A stretch of DNA of 63,055 nt, counting the filler, from Nemertoderma westbladi (Eukaryota > Animalia > Xenacoelomorpha): assembly GCA_032718475.1 (NCBI GenBank). It is 3 parts of 3 records of this genome, joined end to end, with 100 filler letters (N's around TTAATTAATTAA, not from the genome) between each part and the next. Parts side by side here need not be neighbours in the genome. Positions count along the whole stretch, not along the records: positions 30,541 to 52,855 come from JAUCBJ010005715.1; 2 more parts are not named here. One strand, written 5' to 3'. Shown one piece after another: positions 15,669-59,645 of the stretch (positions are counted from its first letter, which is position 1; each line of letters opens with the position of its first letter). The notes beneath the pieces are model-generated. The model made no database searches and was not told the DNA's origin. It saw only the letters and a program-made list of their open reading frames with translations. The position numbers and the translations under genes are program-made.

Positions 15669-15888
15669 CTGTCTACATTGTTTTATATATTTTACATATG
15701 TTGTATAATATGTTGTATTGGCTTATTGGGTTTAAAAATTCTCCCATTTAAATATTTTGATTACATTTTATAAATTTTTCATCATCTTTCGGGTATGTGT
15801 ATTAACTTTGTTAGCTTTCTCTCCAGTGCAACTAATTTCAGATTTCGTTCTTTCTCGTAATTTAGGTTTTTATTTTATCTTTCCATAG

Positions 15889-25300: not shown

Positions 25301-25362
25301 GGAGATGTTGCGGTGCAGTGCATGGTAGGTAGCTAAATAATTAACCAATTTTTGTTTATTAG

Positions 25363-27814: not shown

Positions 27815-27989
27815 GTTAGTTTAGTGTACAACATACACCTTCCTTATGTATGACCCATTTACACCTTAACGGCATTTATGGGTCGCTTAAGCCCTTAAAT
27901 TTATCAGAATATAATGGTTGACTCTTGACTAAATCCCTTTATTTATAATCAATGGATACACTATACACTTTGAATTCTCCGATATGAGT

Positions 27990-30540: not shown

Positions 30541-33158
30541 GTAGTTCGAGAGTACTTCAGACAATTGAACATGGACAATAAGTACACATGGAACTTCGTT
30601 GCCATTTGCGATCGCATTACGAAGGGTGTATTTACGGAGACTAGAAAGGTGGTACGCGCGCGAGGAGATTGGAGGATGGCGGCTATACAGTACCGCAACG
30701 AATTCTTGTTGACTCATGTGCCAGTGGGTTCATTGACCGCTGAGAGGATGCAAGAGCAAAGGATCGCAGCGACCACAGCGACGACCGCTGGAGTGCGAGG
30801 CTCGCGGAAAGAACCAGGAGGAGAGGTCCGAGACAAGCGTCAAGTCAAGGACGACCACTACCATTCGATTATAGAAGCGCAGCGGTTGCAGCGCAAGGCG
30901 CAGGGGGCGTCTGAGAAAGCGCGTGTGCAACTGCAGAAGGAAGAGTTGGCGGAAGCGACCACGGGAGCGCGACAATTGGGACGAGGCCGAGGGAGAAGTT
31001 CGAGCCGAGAGTCTGTCGGGGCTCAGGGAACGTCGTCGTCGGTTCCGGGGAGTGACGCCTCACGGACGCCGTCAACAGAGTCGACTAGAGGACGACTGGT
31101 GTATCTGGGCAGAGGGCGAAAGAGAGGAGCGAGCCCGAAGAACCCAGGAGCGGGTTGTTAATGCATCGTATCACAGGGCGACAGACTCTAGATATATACA
31201 TCATCGTCGCTCTGATGTATATTGTAGCATTTTAGAAATATCCGACTAGACTCATATACACTAGTTGCATAATTATTTGAATTTATACCTAAAGAGGTGA
31301 GGTCTCTATAGGGGTGTAAATAACAGGCGGCGGCGGACTCGTGAGGGTCTGGGGGCACGCTAAATCTCAAATATAGTGCTAGGGAGTCACTGAAGGCCCT
31401 CGTGTCTAGCGAACCATGAATTGCCATGGTGCCGTGGTACCGTCTAGTCGGCATGTTGCCGTACTGCCAGTCCTGTACACAGTAGGGGTGGTGGCATGGC
31501 GTGATTTGTGGTTCATGTGGCGTGAACTATGTTTTGTATGTGAGCAACCAGTGGCAGTTTGCTTGGGGCTTGGATGGGTTCCTTTGGCCATCAGCTGTTC
31601 CGTTTTTTTGATACTATATGTTATTGTCTCCATGTTCAGCTGATTGGTCTTTGGGATTTGTTCGGGTCTTTGAGCTTTCTGTTGCTGTAGGTACGTGAGT
31701 ACACGTGATTGTATGTGTGGCCACTGCGAGTGGGTATGGGAACCCTTGCCAGTTGGACAAGACGCCGCTGGTATTAGTAGGACCATACTTTACTGCGCCC
31801 CAGCATACTTTGTGCACACAAAGTTATTTTGCCCTGACGGCAAAATAAGGTACTCTCGATTTGCCTCCGATCGATACAATTTTGTCCCTTCTGATTTTGA
31901 CCCCGATTTTGTCTTACCCGATTATGTCATCTGTGTGTGCATGGTATGTGTTCGATTTTGTGCTTACCGTTGTGTACTTGATTTCGTGAACATCTGTTGA
32001 GTACACGTGTACAGTGACTGGTAAGTGGTTACTTGTTCAGTAGCTTTTGAGCTACAGACAGTATTGTTTTTTAAATACTGCCGGCGAGGCAGGTGAAAAC
32101 GAGTCAAAATTCCATGTTGGGTAGCGCAAGCCCACATGGGACAAGACCGTCGGTTAGGCCCAAGGGCGACCTTGGTGCTCGATCGCTATCGACTGGTCCA
32201 CCTGCCGGTTGACTCTTTGTTATACTTTGAGTTGGCTCGATGTACAGTCAGGCCACAGTAAGTTGACAGTAGCCGACCATCTGGCTACACGTTCGACGAG
32301 CTGTGCTGGTGTGATCGGGGAATTGAAAATTGAACCCGGGAAGCATCAGGCCACCCTCCGGCCCGGTCTGATAATAACAAGCAGTCGGACTGGCCCCAGG
32401 GGTGGTGGAAAGGTGTCCGCCTCGTGGGTGCGCCTCGGGGAGGAGCCCAGAAGGACACAAGTGATTATGAGAGAGGCGAAGGAAGTGATTGGGGAGACAA
32501 ACCTGCGGGTTTGGCTTACTCCTTTCACTTGCCCCAGCAAATACTATATTTGATTTGTGTATATGACTTTATTTGCTCTAAAGTTTATTGAAAGAGGCGA
32601 AGGAAGTGATTGGGGAGACAAACCTGCGGGTTTGGCTTACTCCTTTCACTTGTCCTAGCAATCATCAAACCAAGATGATTTGCGTTTTTTATAAGAAATT
32701 AAGTAAAGTCCGAAAATGAAAGAAATTATTACGTATTTTATATTTAATTTGATTATCGGCCTTTAATGCAATTTAGTTAAAAATTTAGCCTCAAATACGT
32801 TTATATTTAGTTTATCTTGTTAATATTGCTTGTTAATTTGAGATGGGAAATGGGGGACATTGTCCTAGCCATGTTTCATTTCAATATGTAGATCGTCAAT
32901 TTGTAAGTAAATAAAGGAAGTAATATTTTGTAATTTAATTTTGTATGTAGTAATCATTATGTAGAACGAACGAGAAACAGTATTTTGTAATTTTAATTTG
33001 TATGTAAATTCATTATGCAATATCTATGGCAATATTTGTAAATAGTAGAATTATTATGTTATTTAGATTGGTTGGAAGAAATTTATTTTGTTTTGTATAC
33101 ATCACCTTATACTCTTCTACAATTGGAGGGAAACATTGTATGATTTCCCTTGGAGCGG
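30541..33158 (+). mobile_element. 3' internal region of LTR retrotransposon family B (unidentified ORFs, long 3' UTR, short purine tract)
   Basis: Lies directly upstream of GGAGCGG|TGTTACGG; no RT or integrase motif visible. Confidence 0.5.
30565..31161 (+). CDS. Unknown ORF (5' end likely in the gap), probable retroelement accessory protein with a basic low-complexity tail
   Basis: 198-aa open frame from the contig edge; no recognised domain. Confidence 0.4.
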   Translation: MNMDNKYTWNFVAICDRITKGVFTETRKVVRARGDWRMAAIQYRNEFLLTHVPVGSLTAERMQEQRIAATTATTAGVRGSRKEPGGEVRDKRQVKDDHYHSIIEAQRLQRKAQGASEKARVQLQKEELAEATTGARQLGRGRGRSSSRESVGAQGTSSSVPGSDASRTPSTESTRGRLVYLGRGRKRGASPKNPGAGC

Positions 33159-35334
33159 TGTTACGGTATATGGCGCTGTATCCATAATATTAGTCATCAT
33201 GCAGTATGCAATATTAGTCCGTTATGCAGTATGCAATATTAGTCCGTTATACTGTATGTAATATTAGTCCGTTGTGCAGCATGATATTTTAGATAAGGCA
33301 TAATAACGCAGTGGTATTTAGATAGGGAAATCGAAACACCCATATATTTGAATCCATCCATTTTGTATAGTATGTAGCCCTACCTACGTAATTTTGTATT
33401 AGGTTATATGTAGATAGTTCCAGGGTAAGTTTATTCGGACCCTGGATTCCGTGCTTGCTGATATTAGCTTTAGTAGGGCTAGCATATAGGGACGCTGTCC
33501 TGGCCATTCAGCAGCCAGAGACGTGAACCATTACCATATATGGTAATAATTCGAGGAAGGGGAGCAAATAGGGCTACAATCCGGCCTCCTTATTGGACTA
33601 GCTGCTTCCAGGTTGGTCTAGTGCTAGCACGGACTGGAGAGCCAATAAGAAAGCGATTGAGTCACCCTATTGCATCACCCCATCCGGATCACCTATAAAT
33701 TGGCGGTGTGCCGGTAGAGCCTCACAACTCATCACATGACACCTAGCCCTAGCACCTGTCTTGCTGTGTTTCTTGATTTGCTAATTTGATTAATTTCGTG
33801 AATGATTTGCTAGTGCGATTACTTGTTTGTGTTTCTCAATAATTCCTTCGATTACTGCTAATTACAACTGAACTATGATTTCTACCTTTTGATTAATGGT
33901 TCTATGTGATTCTTTTCTGCGCAATAATCCTAAGGGATTCCTGAGACTGTCAGACTTTGTGATTTGCATGCGCCGCTACGGTAGCTATTAGCGTAATGGA
34001 GGGCTAAGGCGCCAGCGGGCGGTGGGCACATCGGGGGGTTGGGCGACTAAGGGAGAGCGGAGGATTCAAAGCGAGCAACGCTGGCGTGGGGTCACCGTTG
34101 CGGTCGGGAAGTTAACGCTGTGGTACGCAGACCAATCGCCGGTACATTAGTTAGGGGGCTGATGATCCAGGTTTCGTCTCTATTTAGTATTAGGGGGGCG
34201 GGAATCAGGTTAGTTAGGAGTCCTATATGTACCCGGGAGAGGCCTGCACGTATCACAACGTTTCGAACGTTGAGCGTGTAGTACGAATAGTGAGTCGCAT
34301 AATTGTGGGCTATACAGTAGTTAACTGCATAATTGCGAACTGTGATTGCTGACGCTGATTGGTGTGTTACTGAAGTGTGCCTATGATTGTGAATGTTTAG
34401 GTAGGCGCTCTTTTCTCTTTGATTGATTTCTATTTCTTAGTTACAACAATTAGTTACTGATTAGGTCAAAGTAATACGGCAAATTTAGGCTATTACTAGC
34501 GAAACTTGTTGCGTAATAAATTAGAATTACGTATTCTGGAACTCTTAGTAATTAGTACGCTGTTAAATATTTGTGACTGTAATTGATTAGTAAAAAATTA
34601 AGAATTAGTACGCAGCATAGCGGAGAGTAGCTAAAGTAATAATTAGAGTACTGTAAACTATTCACGCTAAGCGGTTATTTGCATTAGCGGGCAATCAGCT
34701 AGAACACACTATTCGGTACGCACGAAACGCTAGTGATTTGCTGGCCTAAAGCCAGCTGCAGGCAATTTTAGACCCAGAGTGGTACTATCCACGAGAGACA
34801 ATTACTGTACCATTTTTGATATTTAAATATTCTCGCATTCACACATTACGTTAGAGAAACCCCAGTATTCGCGATTAGAAAGACGTAGGTAATAGCGTGC
34901 TTTAATAAGTGATAGAATTAGGCGTAAGAATACTCTGAGTGCAAGGCCTCTCGCACTCGTCTTAAGTAAGCTTAGGGAGCCGACTCAGGTTTATTGTTTT
35001 GGTTATTCCTGCGTGGCTCATAGATTCGAACAGTTAGCTCTCTATTGAGCAATCGGTAGAGAAAGGAACAAGCGATTTTGCAGGAGTTGTGTAAAATTAG
35101 TAAATATATTAGCGGACGGCAGATTAGCGCCATCTAACGGTAAGTAGCGGTTTTGTATTTAGCAACCCTTACAATTTAGTAATATCACGCTCCTGAGCCC
35201 CTTTACTTAACAGTAGAGCAGTCTTTGTGTCTTATTGGTTAGGCGAGAGCTCATTAGGTTGGCAGAAGAATATTAACGGGTATTGGTCTGTTCAACAGTT
35301 CTGCTGTTAGTATAGAGGTCGCGGTTGTTTATCA
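33159..35334 (+). mobile_element. Putative 3' LTR of family B (~2.18 kb, TG...CA), inserted into the leader of a family-A element
   Basis: Starts TGTTACGG after a purine run; CCAAT (~33643) and TATAAAT (~33694); ends TTATCA exactly where the family-A leader repeat (CTGCCCCTACTTCC) resumes. Confidence 0.6.
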
Positions 35335-36021
35335 CTGCCCCTACTTCCTAACCGTTCTTTATCGGACAGATGCTTTACACACACCGAAATTTCCTCAAAC
35401 CCAACAGCAGCCAGACAACTATCCAGCCTACAAATTATCTAAATAAAATTATACGCTACCCGTACAGACTACACAAACAAAGTACAGACTAAACGATGGC
35501 AGACTACTATCAAGCCTAAATAAACCACAGGACATGCAGACTCCGAAATGGTTAAGTAGTATGCGTTCTAACCCAGTAGTACGACTTATTCCTTAGATGG
35601 GGGTTTACCTTACAGCTATGGCTGCCCCTACTTCCTAACCGTTCTTTATCGGACATACACTCTACATGCACTGCAATCCGTTCAGACCTAATCAACAGTT
35701 AGCCAACAGTCAAGCCTACAAATTGTCTGTACAATCTGATCAGGCTTACACGCCTTCTGTTCAATATTGGCCTACAAATAAATAAAACTGACAGAAATAA
35801 GTAAAATCTCAATAAAAAACCAGGGCGGGCCCTCCCTGATTAATTATTAAGGCCTACTGGTATATAATAATCAAAATCGAATAATACTGCTATACCTGTA
35901 CTGGAAGTACCGGTTAGGACAGTTGAGCCTACAGACGTACCGCAGTACCGGTTCAGGTTTACCGGTTGACCGGTACTTTCAACTTTATTGCTTACTGCAA
36001 TAAAGAAGCTATATCCGTTAT
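35335..36021 (-). mobile_element. Family-A leader (copy 3), truncated by the family-B insertion
   Basis: Reverse complement of ~44810-45350 and ~49350-50200, including the ~290-bp internal duplication. Confidence 0.85.
36010..36021 (-). promoter_or_regulatory. Putative self-priming PBS of copy 3 (ATAACGGATATA), complementary to 36765-36776
   Basis: 12-nt perfect reverse complement inside its own LTR. Confidence 0.78.
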
Positions 36022-37241
36022 TGTTCGCGCTTTCAGACCTTTGGCAGTTTAACCCGCCAAATTAGGATGTCTTCTAGATAATAAATCGATTTTAGCCTCT
36101 GACAAGTATTTGATTCACTACACTAGTTGAAACCAATCTGTGCGCGATCATTCACCCGCTGGATATACCCGGGAGATTGACTTCGACGGCTTAATCTTAT
36201 TGCTATGTAAGCCTAATGTATTATTCGACTGACAGTATTATATAATCTCTGACAATATTATTCACCTTCGGGGAATATTAACAGTTCCTTTTGGACGTGG
36301 CGCTCTATCTATATAAACAGAGCTATGACTTAAACTACATGCAACGATATGGCTTAGTTACAATTCACATATATGGCGCATTCTTTAGGAAATGCTTCGT
36401 TATCAGTCTCACTCATACACAATGCTGCACAATACTGCACACTGATCTGCCGATCTTCACTGATTTTAGTCACATATAAAAGGAACACAGACCGACTCAT
36501 GTAGGGTCTATCAGATAACATTAGATTCACTTCAAACCACTTTAACATAAGTCACAATCGTTATATGTAACCTGTCTCTCTTACCTTCGGTATATCAAGA
36601 ATATTGGGTTTTCGGGGTTATTTCTCATTATTCCAAATATAATATTTCATCAACCATATAATGAATAACCGACAGTAAATAGCAGTATAACGTTATAAAA
36701 GTATGCACGACAAGACCAGCCAAGCATTGAGTAAGTTGTTAACCATTGAGTTACCCAGTGTGTGATAACGGATATATGTCCTTATAATTAAGCCTACTAG
36801 TGTTAGGCTAAAAGCAGAAAAAGCACAAATATTCCAAAAGCCGTTCTTTCTTGGCTCAGGACTGAATGATAACACTGCCCATAAAGCATTGCGTGATTTC
36901 TAGGAAATTTCTGTACAAGAACAGTAAAAACGCTCTGATTGGTTGACTGAACTGAGAGGCACCGTAGAACAAAGAAAATCGACACATATACAGCTCAGCT
37001 GTTAACCGTCGTCATAGTAACTACTGTTTCAAGAGGATCTAGCTATTTTGCGTCATAGAATTGCCATAGAATCACCAACCATGTCCCCCAAAGTACACAT
37101 ACGGAAGAAATAGCTCTTAGGTCCTCTAAAAAACACCGATACAGCAATAATACGGCCTCTTACGCCTACTAAACCAACTACAGAGTATTTTACGGGAAAA
37201 ATAAGGAAAAATAACCGGGCAATTCCGCAAAAGCTTTTACA
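36022..37241 (-). mobile_element. Family-A 5' LTR, copy 3 (1220 bp)
   Basis: Minus-strand termini TGTAAAAGCTTTTGCGG...AAAGCGCGAACA; homologous to the other copies. Confidence 0.85.
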
Positions 37242-37459
37242 CCACACTATAATACTACAGTGCAGCAGTGATATAATATTAGTCTGTAGTATACTACTGT
37301 AGGCCTATTTCTGTTTCAGTCCAACAAATTAGAATTAAAAGCAATAGGCTCGTACTTCATGTTCTTCTACAGTATGTATATACAGACTGCAGAATGCAGA
37401 CCGCAAATTGAGCCATGACCTAATACTGAGCGAAACAAAATTGGTACCCCTCGTAGACT

Positions 37460-39910
37460 GAGAGAGGGCTGTTGCGCTGTCAGTCAGAGAGGTATCAGCC
37501 CTTGGGGTAAGGATTTACCTCTGGGACCTGTATTAGGCAAAATAGCAGAAGCTGTGTAGGCCCACCAGTACTGTGCACGGTACAAGACCCAAAATTTAGC
37601 CTACATCTGTAAATAATACACGGTTTCGCGGTACAACACCATAAAAATTAGACCACCATCTGTAAAATGCTCGCCTGAGTTCAGGAGTTGCACAGATGTC
37701 AGGATGTGCTGATTCTATATCATCCACTAACGGATTCTGGTAGCCTGGAACTAGACTAGACCACTACAAAAACTGATGCGACAGAGCGAGGTGCCGTTAG
37801 CCTAACATTTCTCGGAGGCTGGTCCGATAACACTCAACTCATTGTTTGGTTGGACATTGATATTATTGCATTACAGTGTACATTATTACATACTGATTAG
37901 TATGGATTGAGAAATTGGATATATTTGGACGTCAATGGATGGATAGCTTTGGTTTGAGAAACTAATATCACGTAGGCCTACCTTATCATATCTTTGCGAT
38001 AATTATTACTAGATCCACTGGCCCCCAGCCACCTTCAACAAACCATCATTGCCGGGGGGCACTCAGCTGAGGGGGCTGGGGGCGGAGCGCATTAAAAACT
38101 CTAAGTATCGCGACCTAATGGACCGGGGCCATTTCTTTCACCCCGTTGCTTTGAGACCTTTGGCCGCCCTGGTCCAGAGACATCCACCTTCCCCCGGGAG
38201 ATCGGGGCTCGTCTCCACAGTGCCATCCACGAACCGCAGTCACGCCAGTTTCTGCTCCAGCGCCTGGAGATGGCAATTTTGGTTGGTAATGCAGCCTCAG
38301 TCATGAGGACAGCAACCACGCCGACCATCGGTCTATTCGGGGACTGAAGAGCCGAAACTGTCGAAATGGTTGCCAATGGAGTCACCAACGGGATGACGGC
38401 CGAAGATATTCAATACTCTATCTTATGCAATCTCAAATATTCAATTCGGTACTGTACCTTCAATTCAATCTTATTATTATTTCTGTGCTTCGTTATTTAA
38501 TAATGTGATTAGATAAAAAAAATAAATTAATGAAATATAATTCATCTGTTAATTATTACAAAAAAAATCCAAAATTTATTTTAACATTTATATAGTTTTG
38601 AATTAAATGTTTCGAAATCAATACAGCAGTGTCATATATCGCGTATCCCTTGGTTTAATCACTATTCTTTATTCAAGTAAAACTGAATCCTGGCCCGCCG
38701 CCTTCACCCTCCACTGATAATTTAAAATCGCAATTCATTCAATCTTTGACTAAATTATACCAAACTTGGTAAACATGTAATCTTGTCTATCGGCTAAAAT
38801 AAACAAAACTTGCTAAAATTTCCCCTATAATGTTTTTTCCTATAGAACAGGATGCAGTTTTATTTTAGTAGTAAACAATCTGTTATTTGCGTCGATTTTC
38901 ACCTGGAGAGGGAAGAATATTGATTGCCCCCCCCCCCCCCCCCCCCCTACCTGCAGTTAAGTGAAAATATTTCGGCACCATTTCATTTTATTATCACGGT
39001 CGCGCATCAAGTAGTCTGTCAAAAGATACAATTCATTATAAACATAACAAAATTAATTATAATAATTCTAAAAATATAAGGCCGATTATCCTAAAGTTAG
39101 CTCTTTAGTCTTTAGCAATCTTATACATTGACAAGACTTATAAAATAATTGATGTTGAATAATTATTATTAAGATTAAAATATATTATTAGGAATTCGAA
39201 GAAAGCAAATTGTATTGAGTTAGTATTGGCAAGTTATTCTCACAAACCAGTCTACGGTCTAGTGGTAGCCTTGTTCGCATTGTTCTAGGTTTAGTTAGGC
39301 TTGGAACACAGACTCCACCGTCTTCGTTCCAGGTTTAATACTGTAATAGACTGTTATCTATCTCGATCGCTTCGCTATGCACCATCTTACTGGGTTTAAT
39401 AAACTCCGTCGCCTTCCTGTCATTCTGTGTTTTGTAGATTACCTCGCCATCGTGTGATCGCTTTGGTTGCGTGTTTAATACTGTAATAGACTCCGTCGCC
39501 ATTGTATCGTTATGGATTGAATAGACATTCCGTTGTCCATCGCGATCATTTCATTGTTTACGTTTAATTGACTCCGTCGCCTCCTCGGATTAGGAATCCG
39601 GCCGGGTTTCGTAGATTCCGCCATCGTTCAGCAGTTCAGTGTTTTTAATCAAAGCCAGAATTCCGGTACGGGCACCACGATCAACGATTTCGGAAGTAAC
39701 AGACCAGCAGACTCCGTCAACAACACTCGAGGTTTAAAAAATACAACTGAGGGCAACTTGTAACTGCAGAACTGGGCGATCATCTATCTGATAGTTGAAA
39801 AAGACTGTCTGACAGTTGGTATCAGACTATCTGATAGTTAGCGCCCCATGGGTAAATCCTTACCCCATGGGCTGTTACCTCTCTGACTGACAGCGCAACA
39901 GCCCCTATAG
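37460..39910. mobile_element. Non-autonomous DNA transposon with ~65-bp TIRs and 8-bp TSD (P- or hAT-like)
   Basis: GGGCTGTTGCGCTGTCAGTCAGAGAGGT..CAGCCC.TGGGGTAAGGATTTACC inverted at both ends; TSD CGTAGACT at 37452-37459 and 39911-39918. Confidence 0.85.
38013..38347 (+). pseudogene. C-terminal restriction-like endonuclease fragment of a CRE-like non-LTR retrotransposon (frameshifted)
   Basis: AERIKNSKY..FHPVA/FETFGRPGP..FLLQRLEMAILVGNAASVM resembles the K.KY...P.A.E..G...QR.S.A...GNA pattern of REL elements. Confidence 0.7.
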
Positions 39911-40745
39911 CGTAGACTTGCCAATGTGTTCCTCAACAATTATCAGCTTTAAACATTCAATTACAGATATTTTCCACCCTGCTGAAGATGGTAAAGTTTA
40001 TTTAGCGAACTCTATGGTTGCAGGGTTATTAGTTAAAATAAGGTTGCAGCTTGCAGGATATAATTTAATTATATTGGTAAATATAATAAATTATTGTGTT
40101 TATAATAAATAATTGTGTTTATAATAAATAATTGTGTTTATAATAAATAAACACACAATTATATTCAGTGGACACAAATTCTCTACAATTTTATAATTTT
40201 CCCAAACGTCCTAGTTTTCTTAATAGTAAAATTTATTACAATAACTTTTTAATTTAAATTATATTAGACTGTACTATGTAGAAACCCACCTGTTCAGTAT
40301 AGTTAACTCAGTAGGCCTACTCGTCTTAATTTTCAAGCCTCGTTGCGCTCGTCCTGCTTTCTCTGAAAATATTTTATTCTAAATTATTTTATACCTATAC
40401 GAAGTCAAGAAATTGTGCGTGACGTGTGGTTTAGGACTATAGACAAGCATCACTCGTCTACATTACAAGCATCGTTGCACTCGTCCTGTTTTGTTGCAAA
40501 TATTTTATTCTAAATTATTCCTGAAGAACGTTTATAATTATGCAAATCTGAGTGAAAAACTGATGATTTATGGCAGATGGATACATACTACATAGATATC
40601 TATCTCTATACTGTAGTTGTCCTGTAATAATTAATATATTGAATTCAGTAATTATGTATTAATAGGTATTAATTATTTATGTATGTATTTTACAGTATAT
40701 CAATCAGTGCTGAATTAGTATCACATAGAACTTGGATTTAGGGTA

Positions 40746-41894
40746 TGTTCGCGCATTTAAACCTTTAGCAGTTTAACCTGCCAATTTTAGTTGTCCTCTT
40801 GTTTATAAATCGACTTTAGCCTATATCAATTACCTAGTGTCTTGAAGTTACATCAGCCGAAGCCAGTCTGTGCGCGACCTTTCACCCACAGTTAAGGGAG
40901 ACTGGATTCGGATGCTTTGATAGTGATTGCAGTGTAGACCTACTGTATTATTCGATTGATCGTTACTATATAATCTCTGTCAATATATTTACTTTCGGGG
41001 AAATATTAACAGTTACTTTAGGACGTGGCGCTTTAAGTATAAAAACAGAGTTATGACTTAAACTAATCACAACTAGATGGCCAAAGAGTTTCGTAAATAG
41101 CGCATTCTTTAGGAGATGCTTTATTAACCTTCACACGACTTCACACTACTTCACACTATTTCGCACTGATCTGCCCACCATCACTGAATTTGATCATATA
41201 TAAGGAGGATCGCAACTGACACATGTAGGGATTATGAAATAGCATTTAATTCACACAAAAACCACTATAATGTAAGTCGCAGTTGCTACCGGTAAACCTG
41301 TTCCTCTCACCTTCAGTAATCAAGAAGATTGGGGGTTTTATGATTATTTCTCGGTATTCTCCAAATATAACAGCAATATCCATTAACATAACAACAATTA
41401 ATGACAGAAGTAAAATAATGCGGTGAACAGTCAGTATGTGTTACATGCAGTTATGAAATGTGTATCCAAGTAAGGTAGTTGAATTGTTAATAGTTTTACG
41501 TTCTTCTAATCAAAGCCATCAGATGTTTAGGCCAAAGTCTGAAACTTCTACACAGAAGTACAGAAGAATTCCAAGCCGGTTCTGAGGCTCAGAAAGGTAA
41601 ACAAAGACCGTAATGCATTGCGCTGGTTTCCATAGGCCTCTGTAAGACAGAAGGGGAAAAATCGCTCTGATTGGCTGACTAGGCAGACCAAAGAAAAATT
41701 CCACATCCACAGAGAATCAGGTGATAGATTTCGTCATCGGGCTCTGATTCCTTCCCGTCACGGAGTTGAATACATTTAGGACTATTTTAGAGTATTCTGC
41801 GCATTGCGGCAAAAATGACTTGTTTTGTCCGCAAAAGCACCTACACTGCGCATTGCGGGAAAAATGACTTGTTATGTCAGCAAAAGCTTTTACA
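40746..41894 (-). mobile_element. Family-A 3' LTR, copy 4 (1149 bp)
   Basis: Same termini; preceded on the minus strand by the purine tract GGGAGTGG; homology to the leaders stops at GAACA. Confidence 0.85.
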
Positions 41895-42699
41895 CCACTC
41901 CCAGAAAATGGGATTTAAGTCTATAAAATATAAAAATCACAGTTTCTAAAATATAAAAATACTCTAAACGATTAGTCCTTCTTACGTGAACGGCGTTTAC
42001 GAAGTTTTTTGAGGCTAGCAAGAGTCCTTTTCTCTTTGGGGCGAGCCACTTTACTAGGAGGGCTATAACTCCTGGGTGAGGAGTGCAATACGATTGCATT
42101 GGAAGGTTTAGGGTTACGGTCGGTGTATCTGCCGGTCGAGGTACCTGGTTGATCGATATCAACCTCAGTGGAACGAGGTCGAACAACCTTTAGAGCGCGT
42201 TTCATGATAGCAGCTCTTACTGGTCCCTGACGAGTCGTCTGCACGAGAGCGGTAGGCGGACCGTGAGTAGTGAGAAATTTCCTCAGTTTGATGGTTCTTT
42301 CCAACTCGCGTTCTCGGGCTCTATATTCATAGGGTCGTCTATGAACTTGTAGCTCTGGATGCGAGTTTATGAACAAGTCACCATGAGATTTATCAATGGT
42401 AGAAACTTTAAACTGTATGTAGGATCTTATGGTTTCACCATATAATATTGAGTTAAATTGACATAATAAGGGTTGTCTTTGTTCCCATAAAATGAGTTCG
42501 GTAAAGGTCTAGCGCGTAGGTTGACCTCGTGTACCATACGACGGACAAGATCCGCTCGATTGTCCGGAGGTTCAACGAGTATACCGTCGACAAGAGCGGC
42601 CTCGATTGGCGGACGTTGTAACATAGGAGCGTCAGCGATAAGATCTCTAGATCTTAGGTTGATATCAACCGGTTGGGGTTGTACCGTGGCGAAGAGTTT
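41895..42699 (-). mobile_element. Family-A 3' internal region with a broken accessory ORF (42427-42699 and 41972-42376)
   Basis: Same strand as LTR copy 4; the ORF ends ~75 nt before the LTR; cut at 42700 by insertion of copy 1. Confidence 0.65.
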
Positions 42700-44675
42700 T
42701 GTAAAAGCTTTTGCGGACATAACAAGTCATTTTTCCCGCAATGCGCAGTGTAGGTGCTTTTGCGGACATAACAAGTCATTTTTGCCGCAATGCGCATAAT
42801 ACTCTAAAAGATTGGAGCTCAGATGACGAAATCTGTCAGCTGATTTCCTGTATACGTGGAACCTCTTTGTTCTGCCTAGTCAGCCAATCAGAGCGATTTT
42901 CCCCCATATGTCGAACAGAGACCTATGGAAACCCGCGCAATGCATTACGGTCTTTGTTTCTTTGTTTACCTTTTTCTGAGCCTAAGAACCGGCTTGGAAT
43001 TCTTCTGTACTTCTGTTGTAGAAGTTTCAGACTTTGGCCTAGAACATCAGATAAACATCTTCTAAAGTATGTTCAGCATACTTTCATTATATGGGATTCC
43101 TGATGAAATTATTGCAGCAATCAGATCAGTATACGATGGTTCGACAACATTTGTGTCTACTGTCGATGGTGACACAGAACCATTTGAAGTGTTATGGGGC
43201 GTCCTCCAAGGAGACACACTTGCACCATTCTTGTTCATTATTGTGGTTGACTATGTTCTACGCATGTCCTTAGATCATTATAATGATGATGGGGTGATGA
43301 TAACTCCACCTAGTGGCTCCAGAAGTCGAGGAAATCCTGCCAAGTACCTAACTGATCTAGACTTTGCTGATGACTTAGGAGTACTATCAGAATCCGAGGT
43401 CCGATTATTTAGAGCGGCAGTAGTTCCAGTACTCCTCTACGGGAGTCCATGCTGGGCTCTAACTGCTGAGGACACCAAATCTCTGCATGGCACATTCACA
43501 AGAATGCTACGCCGGGTTCATTGTGTCAAGTACAATGCACACATCTCCAACCAGACACTATATAACATTGGAGGTGTCTCATTGTTTCCCCCAAGCTTGA
43601 CACTAGAACAAAATCGCCTCCGCTTTGCAGGACATTACTTTCGCCGTGAGGACCAGCCAGTGCATAATCTTGTACTTTGGCAGCCTCATGGAGTGAATAA
43701 GCATGGTGGACAGCCCATGACTTTCTTGAGACGCATCTTAAAGGACACTGGCCTTAAAGATGCGGATGATCTAGCAAATGTCATGGGTAATAGGGAGTTG
43801 TGGCGGTGCAATTTTGTTGACAAGCCGGCACAGCATTCTTAAAAATGCAGCTGCAATGCAGCATGCCGATCATAGTAGTAGAACATCTGATGGCTTTGAT
43901 TACAAGAACGTAAAACTATTAACTGAATCATACTTCATATCTGAATCACTGAAACACATTGAACATTGCTGCACATGGAACACTGCATAAGTAACACATA
44001 CTGACTGTTCACCGCATTATTTTACTTCTATTATTAATTGTTGTTATATGGATGTATATTGCTGATATATTTGGATAATACCGATGAATAATCATCTTCT
44101 TGATTACTGAAGGTGAGAGGAACAGGTTACCGGTAGCAACTGCGACTTAAATTATAGTGGTTTTGTGTGAATTAAATGCTATTTCATAATCCCTACAAGT
44201 GTCAGTTGCGATCTTCCTTATATATGATCAAATTCAGTGACGGTCGGCAGATCAGTGTGAAGTAGTGTGAAGTCGTGTGAAGTAGTGTGAAGGTTAATAA
44301 AGCATCTCCTAAAGAATGCGCTATTTACGAAACTCAGTAGCCATCTAGTTGTGATTAGTATAAGTCATAACTCTGTTTTTATACTTAAAGCGCCACATCC
44401 TAAAGGAACTGTTAATATTTCCCCGAAAGTAAATATATTGTCAGAGATTATATATTAACGATCAATCGAATAATACAGTAGGTCTACACCGCAATCACAA
44501 TCAAAGCATCCGAATCCAGTCTCCCTTAACTGTGGGTGAATGGTCGCGCACAGACTGGCTTCGGCTGATGTAATTTCAGTACACTAAATAATTGATATAG
44601 GCTAAAGTCGATTTATAAACAAGAGGACAACTAAAATTGGCAGGTTAAACTGCTAAAGGTCTAAAAGCGTGAACA
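42700..44675 (+). mobile_element. Family-A 5' LTR, copy 1 (~1.14 kb plus an RTE insertion)
   Basis: TGTAAAAGCTTTTGCGG...AAAAGCGTGAACA; close reverse complement of copy 4; CCAAT at ~42884. Confidence 0.88.
43053..43878 (+). mobile_element. 5'-truncated, internally deleted RTE-type LINE inserted in LTR copy 1
   Basis: GVLQGDTLAP, DFADD, RLRFAGH; (TAG)n tail; ~13-bp TSD TAGAACATC(A/T)GAT at 43040-43052 and 43879-43891. Confidence 0.93.
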
Positions 44676-44690
44676 TTAATAGTTTTACGT
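44676..44690 (+). promoter_or_regulatory. Putative self-priming PBS of copy 1 (TTAATAGTTTTACGT), complementary to 43908-43922
   Basis: 15-nt perfect reverse complement inside its own LTR. Confidence 0.8.
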
Positions 44691-46566
44691 ACAAAATATA
44701 TTTGTCTAATGTTCTGTTAAGAACATTAATAGTTTTAAACTCTTGATTGCACAGTAGGCAATAAATATTTTGTCTATTGTTCTGGTAAGAACAATAATAG
44801 ATTTTTAAGTTCTTTATTGCACCGTAGGCAATAAAGTCGAATGTACCGGTCGAACGGTAAGCTGTAGGCCTAAATGCCCAACTACCCAAACCGGTACTTA
44901 CAGGTACAGCAGTATTATTCGATTTTGATAATTATATACCGGTAGGTCTTGATATTTAATCAGGGACTGCAGCCCTGGTTTTTTATTCGGATTTTACTTA
45001 TTTCTGTCAGTTTTATTTATCTGTAAGTGTAATATTGAGCAGAAGGCGTGTAAGCCTGCCCAGATTGTACAAATAATTTGTAGGCTGGATTGTTGTCTAG
45101 CTGTTGTTAGGTCTGAAGCGATTGCAGTGTTTGTAGAGTGTCTGTCCGATAAAGTGCTAGTTAGGAAGGTGGGGGCATCCAGTGTTGTAAGGTAAATCCC
45201 CCCGAAAGAATAAGTCGTACTACTTGGTTAGAACGCCTACTAACTAACCATTTCGGTGTCTGCATATACTGTAGTTTATTTAGGCTTGCCAGTAGTCTGC
45301 CAGAATTTGGTCTGTATTTTGTTTGTATAGTCAGCACGGGTAGAGTAATATTTATTATTCAGAGTCTATGCAAGTATTCGCAACCACCAACTCTCCAAGT
45401 TTATTCCTACAGTAATTGTGCTTGTTATACATACTGTTATAGTTAAATTAACCCCGGTACTACATCAGGGCTGCTTGGCGTAGGTAAAGACTGGTGATTT
45501 TGTGCTCCGGTCACTCCAGCAGATACCGTGGTTCTTTTGGCTGTTCAAGTATATTTAACTGCTGGTTATTTGTTGTATTAGTACTTGTACCTAATTTATG
45601 GTTTAGAGTACAGTGCTTTCCGAAAGTAATTTAGTGTGTAGGCAGTATATTTGTGTTGTAACGTGGTTAATAGGCACGTTAGCTCTGGTTGGCTTCGGTA
45701 ATTAACCTCTAGGTAAGGACACTCCGGGTACATAACATAGTACTTATAGAGCTAAGACTATAAGTCGTCAGACGGTGGTATTTCCTTATCTGGAAAACGC
45801 AATTTACTTACTACTGCTCTATTGTTTTCAAATACCGCAGTATCCTGTCAGTTTGTAAGAACCAGAAATTCTAACTCCTTGTTAGACTGGTTTGTAGAGT
45901 TCTTGTAACATTACCCTAACAAATTGTACGTGTAACTTTTAGTGTTTATTTAGAGATTGTAATTTCAAACTGAAATTGAAAGTTGTAATTTGTAGTGATA
46001 AGTAACTTAGTAAAGTATAATTATTCGTTTTAGTATCCAACAAGTAGCACTCCACTGAGAGCGTTCAGCTTCTGTGTAGTGACTCCTTACCCAGAAATAA
46101 TAACATTTGTTTCAAATATTGTCGAAAACCCTTGTACGGGTACATAATATATTATAAATCAACTTAAACAGATTTATAAAATAGTAGGCCTGTTATACAT
46201 CAATTAGGTCTTAATATCAGTTGGACTACTGCTTAATAACAGTAATAAGTAAAAGGGAATTAGCCCTAAAATTCAGAAATTCAGTTATTATCAATAATTG
46301 ACATTACCGGTATTTACGGTAGGCGTATTATATATATTTATATAAATTTAGGCTAAAATTATATACCGGTATTCTGTAACCAATCCTAGTCTATAATAAT
46401 ACTTATATATATACTATAAGTGTATACCGGTATTTTAATATATATATATCAAGTTACACTGAGTAACGGTATCGGTAATTAATTACTAGGCTTACAGTTT
46501 ATACTGAATTACTAGACTTGCTTTAACTGTCATTATAGTAGTAGGCATTCAACTGTAAAATAAATC

Positions 46567-48136
46567 ATGGCTGACACAAAGCAAACACTGTCAGATAGTC
46601 TCCTAGAAAGAACAGTCTGCGACTCAGATAAGAGTATAGAAAATCTGAGACCAAAGTTCAAGTCCCCTCCTACTGTAAGAAAGGTCATCCCTACAGTAGT
46701 AGTGTCAGACCTTAGGCTAGTAAAGCACCATAGGTCTATCATAGGCACTAGGTCTCAAGTCAAGCGGGACCAAGAGGCAGCTGTTAAACAGCAGCAGCAC
46801 CCGACCCGAGAACTTATTTCTCAGCGGCCCGATAACTCCAGTAGTTCAGACACTGTAAAGTTGACACCCGAGATCGGAGCAAGGATGACAGAAGCGGTTT
46901 ATCCAGATCCACTTCTAATTCTTCCTGGAGCCGTACTCACTAGAGTATTGATCGCGGTGGAAGAACATCAAATCGATTGGGCGAGAAGTAAGTGATCGAC
47001 CAGGGACAGTTATGCGGGATACACGATAGATGAATTAAAGTCTATTGTCGAGGCGCAATGGAACATCCCCAGACCCGGACTCCCGTTTAACTTATCGGAA
47101 GCTGCCTGGGAAGACTTATACAGGATGGGAGTAGTAAGGGACACTCGAGATCCAGCTGTGTGGAAGACGTCGGCAGCAGGATATGTCCAGGGATTCTTCA
47201 GCTCTTTGGAGCGCTTAGAGGAACACCTGTTTCAACAACATCAAGGACCTCAAGAGCAGGGAGAGCTGCTTTATCAAGTGTGAGAACGAATTTTACTGAT
47301 CAGACTAATCCTTTTGGCCTTTGAAGAAGCTTCGAAGAGAAGCCAAGACACGTCGTTGCAAGTGGCTGTAAAAACTTGGTTCCAACGGGTGAGTCTTTAA
47401 GTCCAGGGAACGACACAATGGAAAGCTCAGCTAACCGAGCGCATGACCCACTGAGAATCAACAGACGCTACCTTTTCTCAGGTGGAAGGCGAAGTTACAT
47501 CCGAGAAACCTCAGAAGAAGGATGCTATTGACATCTATCTGTCGGACTATCAACGATGTATAGGTGACAAAGAGTTAAGGAGACGGCTAGCTGGACTTCA
47601 CCCTAATAGTGAGGGAGCCAAATTTGTGTTTGACTCATTAGATGCGGAAATATTAGCCGCGGAGCAGGGTAAATTTGATGAAAGCATCCTCATCGCTATG
47701 GACCAAGAAGAGCAGCTAAAGAAAAAGCAAATAGAAGACCGAAGGTCAGCGGCCGCGGCAGAATCTGAAAGGAAAGCGGCAGCGGTCGCGGCGGAATCTG
47801 AAAGGAAAGCAGCAGCGGTCGCTGCAGAATCTGAAAGGAAAGCGGCAGAGGCTGAAAGAAAAGCGGCAGCGGTCGCGGCAGAATCTGAAAGGAAAGCGGC
47901 AGAGCCGAAAGAAAAGCGGCAGCGGCAGCAGCAGAATCTGAAAGAAAAGCGGCCGTGGCTGAAGCAGAAAGACGGGCATCTGAAGAGACAACCCAACTAG
48001 AGTTGGAAAATCTTCAAGCGAAGCGAGATTACTTAAATAAACAGCTACTCAGATGCAGCTGCTAAGTCGATCTACTCCCAGGAGACAGGGATTTACATCC
48101 TCTGATGAAGGCGATACAACAGATCCTGAATATAGA
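46567..48136 (+). pseudogene. Degenerate gag-position ORF1 of family-A copy 1 (stops and frameshift; truncated by copy 2)
   Basis: Colinear paralog of 51519-52855 (HHRSIIGTR.QVKRDQEA, DAIDIYLSDYQR, ERKAA repeats). Confidence 0.85.
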
Positions 48137-49348
48137 TGTAAAAGCTTTTGTGGGATAACTGATACGTTTGCCTTTGCTGGCCAGTTCCCCCCCAGTCGCT
48201 AGAATACTCTCAAAGGGATTTATAACTAAAATAGTGCAAGCTACCAGCTTATTGGCTGATGTGCTGTACGGAGATATCTGGGCTCAGTTTAATCGGCCAA
48301 CTAGCTTAGAGAGGTTGCCTTAGCCTTGCTGTTCGTGTCGGCCAATAGAATTTGCGTAGGCGTTGATTTCGACCTATCCCAGCGTTACTGAACTGAATTT
48401 CCTATCTCTATGCTCATCATCTGTGTTGAACGGGGCTTCGTGGAATAAGAGTTTTTGGTATACTCGTATAGTGGTAGTAGTCATATGATTTTATATGATT
48501 CTGTTGTTGTGTTCCCATTTTCGCCATAACACCGGCTTTTTGGGAAGAACTCTAGTAAAACTGCTTAAATTATCGAAAGTATAAACTGTTACCTAACCTA
48601 CCTACTCATGAATCAAACGAACTCACTAACTCACTTAATTTAACTGCATTAATCATATTGTTTGTACTGTTATTTACCGTCAGTTATTAATTGTACCTAT
48701 TTGTTGATGGAAATATTGCTCTTTGGATAATACGGATAAATCACCCAAATTTCCCAATTTTCTTGATACACTACAGGTTAGAGAGACCGGCTATACATAA
48801 CAATTGCGATTTATATTAATGTGGTGTGTATTGAATCTAATGTTATTTAGCAGACCCTACATGAGTCAATTGCTGCTCTCTTTATGTGTGATCAAATATA
48901 CTGACGGTCGGCAGAATAGTGTGCATGATTGTGATTGGTAACAAAGTATTTCCTAAAGAATACGCTTTATACTTTAATCATAAGCGGTATCGTTGCGTTT
49001 TGGTATAAGTCTTAGTTCTGTTTAAATAGATAGAGCGCCGCGTCCTAAAGGAACTGTTAATATTTCCCGAAAGCCAATAATATCTGTCAGAGATTAATTA
49101 TTAACGATCTATCGAATAATACAGTAAGTTTACGCTGCAACCTTACACTGCAATAATAAAATTTAAGCATCCGAATTCAGCCTCCCGGGTGTAGATCCAT
49201 CGGGTGAATGATCGCGCATGGGCTGACTTCGGCTAATGTTTTGTGTATTAGCATAAATTGTTGTCGTATGCTAAAGGTGTTTTAATTAACTAAAAGACAT
49301 ATAAATTTTGGCAGGTTAAACTGCTAAAGGTCTTCAAAAGCGCGAACA
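48137..49348 (+). mobile_element. Family-A 5' LTR, copy 2 (1212 bp)
   Basis: TGTAAAAGCTTTTGTGG...AAAAGCGCGAACA; the 3' two-thirds are homologous to the other copies, the U3-like part is divergent. Confidence 0.85.
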
Positions 49349-49361
49349 GTAACAGTTTATA
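49349..49361 (+). promoter_or_regulatory. Putative self-priming PBS of copy 2 (GTAACAGTTTATA), complementary to 48580-48592
   Basis: 13-nt perfect reverse complement inside its own LTR. Confidence 0.8.
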
Positions 49362-51518
49362 ATCTTATTGCAGTAGGCAATAAGGTTGCAAAATACCGTA
49401 GTGACTGGTAAAACTGAACCGGTACTTCTGTAGGTCAGTAGGCCTAACTGTCATCACCGGTACCGGTACTGCTGTATCAGTACATTAGTATTATTCGAAT
49501 TTGATTGGTGTATACCGGTAGGTCTTAGTACTTAATCAGGGACTGCAGCCCTGAATTTTTATTGAGATTTTACCTATTTCTGTCGGTTTTATTTCCTAGT
49601 AGGCTAATATTGAGCAGAAGGCGTGTGACCCTGCTCAGATTGTAGGCTGAACTGCTGTCTGACTGTTGTTGAGTTTGGAGAGATTACGGCGTGTGTAGAG
49701 TTTGTCTGATAAAGTGCCGTTAGTAAGTTGGGGCAGCCATATGCGGTAAGGTCAATCCCCTCTTAAAGAATAAGTCGTACTACCGTGTTAGAACGCATAC
49801 TAACTAACAGTTTCAGAGTCTGCATATACTGTAGTTTATTTAGGCTTGATCGTAGTCTGCCAGTGTTTTAGCCTGTGTTTGTTTGTGTGGTCTGTTCAGG
49901 TACCGTAATAGTTATTACTCAAATATTTGTAGGCTGGATTGTTGTCTAGCTATTTTTAGGTCTGAAGGGATTGCTGCGTGTGTAGAGTTGGTCTGATAAA
50001 GTGCCGTTAGTAAGTTGGGGCAGCCATAAGCTGTAAGGTCAATCCCCTCTTAAAGAGTAAGTCGTACTACCGTGTTAGATCGCATACTAACTAACAGTTT
50101 CAGAATCTGCACATACTGTAGTTTGTTTAGGCTTGATAGTAGTTTGCCAGCGTTTGGTTTGTATTTGTTTGAGTATTCTGTACGGGTAGCGTAATATTTA
50201 TTATTCAGAGTTTATGCGATTATTCGCAACATTCATGTCCCCAAGTTTATTCCTACAGTAATTGTGCTTGTTATACATACCGTTATAGTTAAACTAACCC
50301 CGGTACTACATCAGGGCTGCTCGGCGTAGGTAAAGACTGGAGATTTTGTGCTTCGGTCACTCCAGCAGATGCCGTGGTTCTTTTAACTGTTCAAGTATAT
50401 TTAACTACTGATTATTTGTTATACCGGTACTTGTACCTAATTTAGGGTTTAGTGTACAGTGCTTTCCGAAGTAATTAGTGTAGGCAGTATATTTGTGTTG
50501 TAAAGTGGTTGATAGGCACATTCGTTAGCTCTATTAGCTTCTGGGTAGGAACAATCCGTGATACATAACGTAGTACCTATAGCGATACGGTTATAGGTCG
50601 TCAGGCGGTGGTATTTTCCTATCTGGACAGTACAATATATTTACTACTTATTATTTCAAATACCGTAGTACCCTGTCCGTTGTAATAACCAGAATTCTAA
50701 CCCTTTGTTAGGCTGGTTTGTAGACTTCCTGTAAAATTACCCTAAAAATTTCGTACGTAATATTTTGTTGTGTTTAATTAGAGAATTAATCTCATCAGTA
50801 TCGTAAGTAATTTGTAGTATTAAGTAACTTAGGTAAATTAGAATTATCAGTTTTAGTGTCAAATAAATAGCACTTCACTGAGAGGCGTTCAGCTTCTGTG
50901 TAGTGACTCCCCCAGAAATAATAACATTTATTTCAAATATTGACAAAAACCCATATAAACGGGTATATAAATATTATAAATCAAATCAAACGATTTATAA
51001 ATAGTAGGCTTGTCATACAACAACTAGGTCTCACTACCAGTTGGACTACTACTTAAACAACGGTAATAAAGTAAGTTAAAGTAGCTAAGTAACCTTAAAA
51101 TATTCAGGAATTCAATTATTCTAAAAATAATTGACATACCGGTACTCACTATAGGCTTATTATATTTATCTCTATAAATTTGAGCTGAAATCATACCGGT
51201 ACTCTGTAATTAATTCTAGTTCATAATTATACTTATATACTATAAGTGTAAGCTGTATACCGGTATTCACTATAGGCCTACTATATATATATATATATTT
51301 GTGCTAAAATTATATACCGGTACTCTGTGACAAATCTAGTCTGTAATAATACTTATATATATATTATAAGCATACCGTTATTCTAATATATTGTATATAT
51401 ATCACGTTACACTGAGTAACGGTACCGGTAATAAATCGCTAGGCTTGCGGTCATACTGAATTACCAGACTTGCTTTAACTGAAACTATAGTAGTAGATAT
51501 TCAACTGTATAACTAAAC

Positions 51519-52855
51519 ATGTCTGACACTCAGCAAAACCTGTCAGACAGTCTGATCGATACAACTATCTGTGATTCAGATAGGAGTGTGGAGCGAATAA
51601 GAAAGGAGTTCGGCTCACCTCCTACTGCAAAAAGGGTCATCCCTCCAGTAGTATCAGACCCTAGGCTAGTCCACCATAGGTCCATCATAGGCACTCGGGC
51701 ACAGGTAAAACGGGACCAAGAGGCAGTTGTCCTATCGCAGCAACATCTTGGTCAAGAACCTACTTCCCAGCGACCCGATAGCTCCAGCAGTTCGGATACT
51801 GTAGAGTTGACTCCCGAACATGGAGTGCAGATGGCTGATACAGTCTACTCGGACCCCCTTCTTACTCTTCCTGCTGCAGTGCTAACTACTATATTCATTG
51901 CGGTGGAGGAACATCAAGCCGACTGGGCGAAGAATAAGCGAGCGACCCAAGATAATTACGCGGGATACGCCAGGGAAGAATTGATATCTATTGTTGAATC
52001 ACAATGGAACTTTCCCGGACTCGGACTTCCATTGGATCTGTCCGAGGCTACTTGGGAAGATATACACAGGATGGGAGTGGCTAAAGATACAATGGATCCA
52101 GCTGTTTGGAAGAGGTCGGCAGCAGGATATGTGCAGGGATTCTTCGGATCCTTGGATCGATTGGAAGAACAACTGTTTCGACAACCTCACGGACCTCAAG
52201 AGCAGGAAGAGTTACTATATCAAATACGCGAAAGAACCCTACGCATACGACTAATCCTCTCAGCCTTTGAGGAAACTTCCAAAAGAAGACAAGACACGTC
52301 GCTGCAGGTTGCTGTCAAAACTTGGTTACATCGGGTAGATCTCAAAGTCCAGGAAACGGCCCAGTGGAAATCCCAGCTGGCTGAGAGATCAACCTATGAA
52401 GAACCAACTGATGTCACCCTTTCTCAAGCAAAAAGCGAAGAGGCCGCCGAGGAACCGCGAACTAGAGACGCTATCGACATTTATTTGTCCGACTATCAGC
52501 GATTCCTAGGAGACGAAGAGTTGAGGAGACGGCTGTCTGGACTTTCCCCTAATAGTGAAGGAACCAAGCTTGTGTTGGACTCAATCGATGCCGAAATGTT
52601 AGCTGCAAACCAAGCTGAACGTGATGAAAAACTCCGCCTCACTAGAGTCCGAGAAGAACAAATAAAGAAAAGAAGGATAGAGGAACAAAAGGCGGCGGCT
52701 ATGGCAGATGCAGAAGCAGAAAGAAAAGCAGCAAAGGCGGCGGCTATAGCAGATGCAGAAGCAGAAAGAAAAGCAGCAAAGGCGGTGGCTATGGCAGATG
52801 CAGAAGCAGAAAGAAAGGCAGCAAAGGCAGTGGCAGAAGCAGAAAGGAGAGCATC
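51519..52855 (+). CDS. Intact gag-position ORF1 of family-A copy 2 (N-terminal ~445 aa, helical/coiled-coil, EAERKAA repeats), runs into the gap
   Basis: First long ORF after the LTR and 2.17-kb leader. Gag identity is inferred from position only; no zinc knuckle in the visible part. Confidence 0.7.
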
Positions 52856-59356: not shown

Positions 59357-59384
59357 TGTTTCTCTAGAACACAACACCTGAAAC

Positions 59385-59645
59385 GGAACTGTTAATACTA
59401 TCCTTGTACGCTGTATCAAAAAAACATGTGTACATAATTGTTAGGAATTATATAGTAAGGATCAATCGAATGATACCTAAACAGCCCATTTTGGTCAGCC
59501 GATATATTTCAGTCTCCCTTTGTGGGTCATACGCCGCGCTAGTTTGAATTGTATCTGATGTTAACACGTTTGGCAAAATTAAGCAAGATTTCTGTGATAA
59601 TAAAAATTGATGGCGAAAATTATCGAAGTCTTAAAAGCGCGAACA
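59385..59645 (+). mobile_element. Old remnant of a family-A LTR 3' portion (copy 5)
   Basis: GGAACTGTTAATA, GATCAATCGAAT, CAGTCTCCCTT..TGTGGGT and terminal AAAAGCGCGAACA in the same order as the other LTRs. Confidence 0.65.

Follow-up and report, generated by a model that had tools for sequence, protein, structure and literature searches.

Subfamily-specific self-complementary sites suggest Tf1-style self-priming of an abundant putative retrotransposon in Nemertoderma westbladi

Introduction

Reverse transcription of the long terminal repeat (LTR) retrotransposon Tf1 of S. pombe is primed by its own RNA, the first 11 nucleotides (nt) of which anneal to the element's primer-binding site (PBS) and undergo cleavage by RNase H (PMC7175516). 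The Tf1 PBS starts ATAAC, a copied PBS is present on about half of the cDNAs (PMC11042837), two further duplexes flank the central one (bioRxiv 10.1101/2022.12.06.519325), and in Tf2 the primer depends on the choice of start site (PMC5341516). Self-priming has been reported in the Tf1/sushi group from fungi to vertebrates (PMC4600332), a group described from fungi, vertebrates and non-seed plants (bioRxiv 10.1101/2022.12.06.519325). In a survey of plant elements, 12%, chiefly Tcn1 and TAR, are also predicted to self-prime, the criterion being that the sequence 0-5 nt past the 5' LTR is complementary to this LTR over at least 10 bp (PMC6317226). Here we describe a family of LTR-like repeats in a 63,055-nt stretch of DNA (the window, to which all positions refer), made of three joined parts of the Nemertoderma westbladi assembly GCA_032718475.1, whose self-complementary sites suggest priming of the same kind in an animal.

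Elements without a tRNA site are described elsewhere, namely Skipper and the bivalve terminal-repeat retrotransposons in miniature, but in the excerpts of PMC5006619 and PMC6934838 complementarity to the LTR or a clear mechanism is lacking. Chromodomain-bearing gypsy clades occur in cnidarians, molluscs and annelids (PMC13524379), and the excerpted text of PMC11673190 does not mention primers. For BEL/Pao elements (Belpaoviridae), ICTV describes an 18-nt PBS for tRNA-Arg or tRNA-Gly and LTRs of 0.2-1.2 kb (PMC8742986). Searches of the open-licence PMC and bioRxiv literature, a scope outside which subscription papers and Repbase reports lie, turned up no invertebrate case of self-priming. To our knowledge, self-primed reverse transcription is proven in the fission-yeast Tf elements alone, while predictions extend to the relatives of these in fungi, vertebrates and mosses as well as to the plant TAR copia elements.

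Results

Four related repeats of 1.15-1.22 kb with TG...CA ends were identified by self-BLAST and alignment, nested in one cluster within the part of the window that comes from record JAUCBJ010005715.1 (positions 30,541-52,855; Table 1). Copies 1, 2 and 3 are followed by homologous leaders, which in copies 1 and 2 extend for 1.9-2.2 kb before an open reading frame (ORF). In each of these three copies, the bases directly after the repeat match, in exact reverse complement, a site within the same repeat, located 768, 769 and 755 nt from the repeat end in copies 1, 2 and 3, respectively. The pairing starts exactly at +1 after the terminal CA, with the 3' base of the internal site pairing with that base in all three cases. 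An initial annotation of the window had given the positions and sequences of these three pairs correctly, and had stated that no TGG-type PBS follows the three repeats; TGG is indeed absent from the first 8 nt after each of them. Copy 4 keeps the internal site at 41487-41501 and has no PBS, also as annotated, the complementarity between its downstream flank and its own repeat being just 4 nt.

This self-complementary feature is real and statistically strong. Repeats generated by an order-1 Markov model contained the site in 11, 5 and 5 of 15,000 trials for copies 1, 2 and 3 (trial lengths of 12 nt, the shared core, for copy 1, 13 nt for copy 2 and 12 nt for copy 3), a full-length match occurred in 0 of 2,000 Markov controls for each copy, and +1 gave the longest match among 300 start offsets per leader in all three copies. 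The pairing is specific to the subfamily: the match spans 15, 13 and 12 nt within the own subfamily and 3-4 nt against the site regions of the others. When the sites are placed in a 12-column register anchored at the repeat end, seven of the columns vary and the PBS differ between copies at 4, 5 and 6 positions, yet all 36 pairs are Watson-Crick and none is G-U. The annotated claim that PBS differences are compensated in the partner is borne out in every column. Under neutral drift of 10-20% per lineage, the retention of all 12 pairs in three lineages has a p of 6e-4 to 2e-7, an estimate that needs the kept pairs alone and does not require double changes. The sequence evidence for the proposed self-priming is thus stronger than the initial annotation could show.

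The duplex common to the family is 12-13 nt long. The 15-nt pairing annotated in copy 1 is exact, but its 3 additional bases lie at a deletion junction inside the tandem triplication that contains this PBS, and they may have arisen by chance or have been copied. Of the triplicated units, the one nearest the repeat end is complementary to the internal site over 15 nt, the next over 12 nt, and the most distant contains mismatches; these units possibly record older versions of the primer. The three PBS start ATAAC (copy 3), TTAAT (copy 1) and GTAAC (copy 2), giving a core N-T-A-A-Y in which T-A-A is invariant. The internal sites of copies 2 and 3 occupy the same aligned position, and those of copies 3 and 4 lie within 3 nt of each other. 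Identity between the repeats is 58-61% upstream of the internal site and 71-74% downstream, a step that fits a border between U3 and R; a contrast in conservation between U3 and R-U5 is expected for LTRs (PMC3601003). Among the public-run variants listed (40 of 704), none falls in a PBS or an internal site, which is uninformative.

The status of the repeats as LTRs is likely, based on their termini, architecture and copy number. All four share their first 14 bases, TGTAAAAGCTTTTG (at 42700+, 48137+, 37241- and 41894-), and end in GCG(C/T)GAACA (at 44675, 49348, 36022 and 40746). Copies 1 and 4 are 89-95% identical and form one subfamily, with copies 2, 3 and 4 sharing 66-69% in pairwise comparison. 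The four are different insertions: copy 2 lies within the ORF of copy 1, and copy 1 stands inverted beside copy 4, with 805 nt between them. Copy 4 is likely a 3' LTR, as it lacks a leader and has a short purine tract directly before it, with a coding remnant further upstream. This candidate polypurine tract (PPT) contains purines at 7 of 8 positions, and the flank of copy 3 is similar. The upstream flank of copy 3 (37242-37250, minus strand) ends GTGG, like the purine tract of copy 4, and copy 3 may for that reason be the shared LTR of a tandem pair. Four public runs yielded 40,991, 10,589, 382 and 248 contig records over 47900-52855, covering all 30 bins; the family is abundant, with a high copy number. 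One contig match from these runs stops at 48137, the start of copy 2. A search with the repeat-end motif of metagenome, viral and genome contigs gave no match. The upstream part of a fifth, distant copy is lost at a poly-C run.

When RNA from the internal site to 40 nt past the repeat is folded, the inner pairs of the helix reach p 0.86-1.0 in all three copies. Three other predicted structures are conserved, a U5 hairpin (which includes G-U pairs), a hairpin just after the PBS and a duplex between U5 and the leader, in an arrangement unlike the three-duplex pretzel of Tf1. The U5-leader duplex is invariant, spans 11-13 bp and has its second strand 135-150 nt into the leader. It covers AATACA, the sole poly(A)-hexamer variant common to all four copies, and we speculate that it hides the poly(A) signal in the 5' LTR alone. 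A scan against Rfam returned three matches, all under the gathering score, and no hammerhead at that score; no tRNA was found in the window. As for a possible intron in R-U5, no matching joint was found among those listed (15 of 56) in the public-run contigs.

The initial annotation placed the internal site downstream of a CCAAT box. This holds for copies 3 and 4, in which the box lies 166-173 nt upstream of the site. In copy 2 it is a different, non-homologous CCAAT at 238 nt, and in copy 1 the box is now about 1 kb away, separated from the site by a fragment of a long interspersed nuclear element (LINE).

As the annotation stated, pol is absent from the window, neither a reverse transcriptase (RT) nor an integrase having been found for the family. 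The product of the copy 2 ORF is helical, with an Ala/Glu/Lys coiled coil (low-confidence model; predicted local distance difference test (pLDDT) 57). It matched nothing in Pfam, among PDB sequences or among proteins of near length; 1.84 billion representative proteins gave 0 matches at E <= 0.001, as did Foldseek with the model against viral and PDB structures. A four-row alignment of this ORF against longer proteins and a protein search of metagenome and viral contigs gave no match. We take its three-helix stretch and coiled coil to recall the N-termini of BEL/Pao Gag proteins, a likeness that no search supports. The model of the coding remnant before copy 4 is poor (pLDDT 46), and its 178 aa had no match among longer proteins.

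The same record also holds what is probably the 3' part of another LTR element (30541-35330, plus strand), comprising an ORF with a basic tail (30541-31161), a purine tract and TGTTACGG at ~33159, and CCAAT and TATAAA near 33640-33700. No self-complementary site follows any CA within 30541-35330. A chromodomain was considered for this ORF and for the remnant before copy 4 and rejected (Pfam negative); the remnant had no match to Chromo at E up to 10, and its likeness to ORF 30541-31161 is not significant (E 0.30). Two 60-nt terminal inverted repeats, 2.3 kb apart and 93% complementary, delimit an element at 37466-39904 that resembles a miniature inverted-repeat transposable element.

Elsewhere in the window, exons at 15892-19419 match human BIRC6 (E 2e-81) and mark the host as an animal. 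They belong to large host-gene exons at 11559-27853 (plus strand), with long minisatellites in the introns, and their surroundings include minisatellites and LINE fragments. Two LINE RT ORFs are present, at 2446-5279 (minus strand) and 53974-56253 (plus strand), with RVT_1 matches at E 4e-28 and 4e-29. An intronless ORF of 155 aa (58185-58652, plus strand) encodes what we presume to be BLOC-1 subunit 4, for which Pfam gave no support.

Table 1. Coordinates of the repeats, their paired sites and associated features
Feature	Position	Strand	Remarks
Copy 1, LTR-like repeat	42700..44675	+	~1147 nt plus LINE insertion; termini, alignment
LINE RT fragment, 829 nt, separating the CCAAT box of copy 1 from its internal site	43053..43881	+	
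Copy 1 internal site (predicted self-primer)	43908..43922	+	shared core 43911-43922
Copy 1 PBS, 15 nt	44676..44690	+	exact reverse complement of 43908-43922
Tandem triplication GAACA-PBS-hairpin in copy 1	44671..44835	+	
Copy 1 ORF, broken, interrupted by copy 2	46567..48136	+	four stops in frame at 46993-47454 and a frameshift near 47910
Copy 2, LTR-like repeat, 1212 nt, leader follows (5' LTR position)	48137..49348	+	
Copy 2 internal site (predicted self-primer)	48580..48592	+	769 nt from repeat end
Possible intron in R-U5	48777..49090	+	donor-like AG/GT(A/G/T)AG in 4/4 copies (slash after AG, splice point), acceptor-like TGTCAG in 3/4
Conserved U5 block	49112..49122	+	complementary to leader block 49488-49498
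Equivalents of the U5-leader blocks	44466 with 44912 (copy 1); 36228 with 35887 (copy 3)		
Predicted U5 terminal hairpin, 4/4 copies	49306..49329	+	weak alone, z -1.3 to -2.0
Copy 2 PBS, 13 nt	49349..49361	+	exact reverse complement of 48580-48592
Predicted hairpin just 3' of PBS	49360..49388	+	z -5.3; copy 3 -3.1; copy 1 unit 3 -2.4
ORF of copy 2 in the gag position, uninterrupted for 445 aa up to the assembly gap	51519..52855	+	
Copy 3, LTR-like repeat, 1220 nt, leader follows (5' LTR position)	36022..37241	-	termini, alignments
Copy 3 internal site (predicted self-primer)	36765..36776	-	755 nt from repeat end
Copy 3 PBS, 12 nt, starts ATAAC	36010..36021	-	exact reverse complement of 36765-36776
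Copy 3 leader, truncated	35329..36009	-	carries leader block 35877-35887 and the hairpin after the PBS
Copy 4, LTR-like repeat, 1149 nt, subfamily of copy 1	40746..41894	-	without PBS, without target-site duplication
Copy 4 internal site	41487..41501	-	identical to copy 1 site
Candidate PPT, short and purine-rich, immediately before copy 4	41895..41902	-	
Coding remnant upstream of copy 4	41972..42699	-	in two frames, C-terminal tail basic
Copy 5, distant 3' fragment of related repeat	59370..59645	+	same terminal GCGCGAACA

Discussion

Based on the above data, we propose that these repeats are probably the LTRs of an animal retrotransposon present in many copies, and that the 5' end of its own RNA, as opposed to a tRNA, is the probable primer for its reverse transcription. 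The sequence at +1 is the exact complement of the internal site, in register. Transcription would start at the 5' end of the internal site or within 1-3 nt of it, where a pyrimidine-purine TA step at the start would yield a primer of 11-12 nt, with a U3 of 390-465 nt and an R-U5 of 755-770 nt. By analogy with Tf1, the RNA 5' end would fold back onto the PBS, and RNase H would cut at the end of the duplex, before the C that follows the internal site in all four copies, leaving a 3'-OH beside U5. The primer would then be copied into plus-strand DNA and the daughter PBS rewritten. This copying of the PBS from the primer in each cycle would rationalize both the co-variation free of G-U pairs and the drift between subfamilies. 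The U5 hairpin, the post-PBS hairpin and the U5-leader duplex are predicted to aid the folding of the long loop, in resemblance to the multi-duplex structure of Tf1.

Several observations weigh against this mechanism. The support that folding gives to the helix depends on the length of RNA folded: with 300 nt of leader added, the helix is lost in copies 2 and 3 and has p 0.49 in copy 1, and when the whole repeat is folded it has p 0.0 in copy 2, as against 0.82-0.94 in copy 3. The U5-leader helix crosses the primer helix, and the nested folding of ViennaRNA cannot model both; these crossing duplexes limit the folding test and do not rescue the claim. The co-variation compares three independent sites, and the alignment of copies 2 and 4 is ambiguous at the internal site. 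A CCAAT box usually lies 60-100 nt from the start, and the 166-238 nt seen here is further; no TATA box was found upstream of the internal site, and the site of copy 2 itself starts TATAAA. The window contains no paired LTRs of one element and no target-site duplication, the cluster being nested and running into an assembly gap at 52856. Domains of RT, RNase H, integrase and Gag were not detected, the search covering the N-terminal 445 aa of a copy 2 ORF that is cut by this gap. Lastly, the likeness of the copy 3 PBS to ATAAC was noticed after the fact. Self-priming by the family, as the initial annotation claimed, nevertheless stands as the best reading in view of the register, the co-variation, the subfamily-specific pairing and the N-T-A-A-Y core, although it is one that we infer and the helix is lost in two of three copies once the 300-nt leader is included.

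Self-priming in one form or another is highly probable, and its 3'-OH could also be supplied by the 3' end of the RNA or by a cut within it. The internal site would in that case be the point of poly(A) cleavage, R would end there and U5 would measure about 755 nt. The CCAAT distance, the absent upstream TATA box and the TATAAA at the copy 2 site keep this scheme alive: a CCAAT 166-238 nt upstream fits a start about 100 nt before the site, which is followed by C in every copy and by CA in two of the four. However, neither AATAAA nor ATTAAA precedes the site in copies 2, 3 and 4, where just AGTAAA occurs at -26 in copy 2, the shared hexamer variant AATACA sits 538-564 nt downstream, and conservation increases downstream of the site, so that we consider this route unlikely. 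The helix could instead be an RNA structure selected for another role (PBS masking, packaging, dimerisation or 5'-3' circularisation from U3), with priming by something else. Further long-range pairing does occur nearby, in the form of the U5-leader duplex that competes with the helix in folding, and the TATA-like site of copy 2 would place the site in U3. Yet the identification of the internal site as a TATA box was rejected, the consensus fitting copy 2 and not copies 1, 3 and 4. Selection on structure usually allows G-U pairs, of which the 36 pairs contain none while the U5 hairpin has them, and the register is exactly +1 in all three copies with no other primer site visible. Such a role is distinctly unlikely.

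Columns 2-7 of the PBS (T-A-A-Y-R-G) could pair through wobble with a GUU anticodon loop, which counts in favour of priming by a tRNA fragment of the anticodon-loop type; the copy inside the repeat would in that case be incidental or regulatory. Priming from an anticodon loop is known in copia and Ty5, and tRNA-Asn-GTT has been adopted once, by the fungal Helenus (PMC10886601). A host tRNA would, however, reset the PBS in each cycle, whereas 7 of 12 columns differ, each mirrored in the repeat, and the differing columns include 1, 8, 10, 11 and 12. We regard this origin of the primer as scarcely credible. It is also very unlikely that the repeats represent another class (Penelope-like, DIRS-like or Helentron) that uses its internal inverted repeats for DNA transposition or for closing the cDNA. 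The failure to find protein domains of an LTR element and the inverted arrangement of copies 4 and 1 speak for it. The four copies share sharp TG...CA ends, though, a leader and an ORF follow copies 1 and 2, a purine tract and a coding remnant precede copy 4, Rfam gave no match at the gathering score, and the coding DNA lies outside the inverted pair, not between its members. Chance or an assembly artefact draws on the AT-rich composition of the 12-mers and on the 57 of 8,203 CA sites in the window that reach at least 11 nt of complementarity within 2.5 kb, 31 of which come from the inverted copies 1 and 4. Its probability is next to negligible given three different sequences at homologous places, each expected at 3-7 in 10,000, with mirrored changes.

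Priming by the RNA 5' end would align the family with Tf1 and Tf2 of S. pombe, Tj1, Tosmo1-3 and the other Tf1/sushi Ty3/gypsy chromoviruses. The shared traits are the lack of a tRNA site, a PBS directly after CA that is complementary over ~11-13 nt to a site in the 5' LTR, a PBS start resembling the ATAAC of Tf1, and extra pairings around the PBS. In contrast, the predicted R-U5 loop of 755-769 nt exceeds the entire LTR of Tf1 (~0.35 kb), the leader is ~2 kb long, and the second duplex forms 135-150 nt into it, as opposed to next to the PBS as in Tf1. Here the primer sequence also differs among the subfamilies of one genome. As in the plant Tcn1 (gypsy) and TAR elements (copia; Houba, Osr-1), the three sites show the complementarity on which self-priming was predicted there; those lineages belong to plants and have known polyproteins, whereas the present element comes from an animal and no protein can be assigned to it. 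BEL/Pao elements share a metazoan host and an LTR length range at whose top the present repeats lie, but the 18-nt PBS for tRNA-Arg or tRNA-Gly is absent (no TGG), and Pfam detected no BEL domain in the 445 aa.

The element would resemble Tf1 in how it works, while it is assigned to no superfamily, the protein and fold searches all having come back empty. The likeness to ATAAC suggests Tf1/sushi rather than BEL/Pao. A tentative and rather doubtful alternative is a lineage of invertebrate LTR elements that is not part of the chromoviruses, being either BEL/Pao-like or unclassified, and that would combine a protein in the Gag position unlike any searched, a 760-nt loop, rewriting of the PBS and private primer keys for each subfamily. 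In such a lineage, splicing of an intron in R might shorten the loop, and U5-leader pairing might hide the 5' poly(A) signal.

On our best reading, the feature reflects Tf1-style self-priming with an unusually long loop and subfamily-specific primers. If this is true, self-priming can span a loop several-fold longer than that of yeast, and primer and PBS are able to diverge jointly inside a single genome without dependence on the host tRNA supply. Such elements would also escape silencing by tRNA fragments, and they are of a type that is missed by tRNA-based annotation of the PBS.

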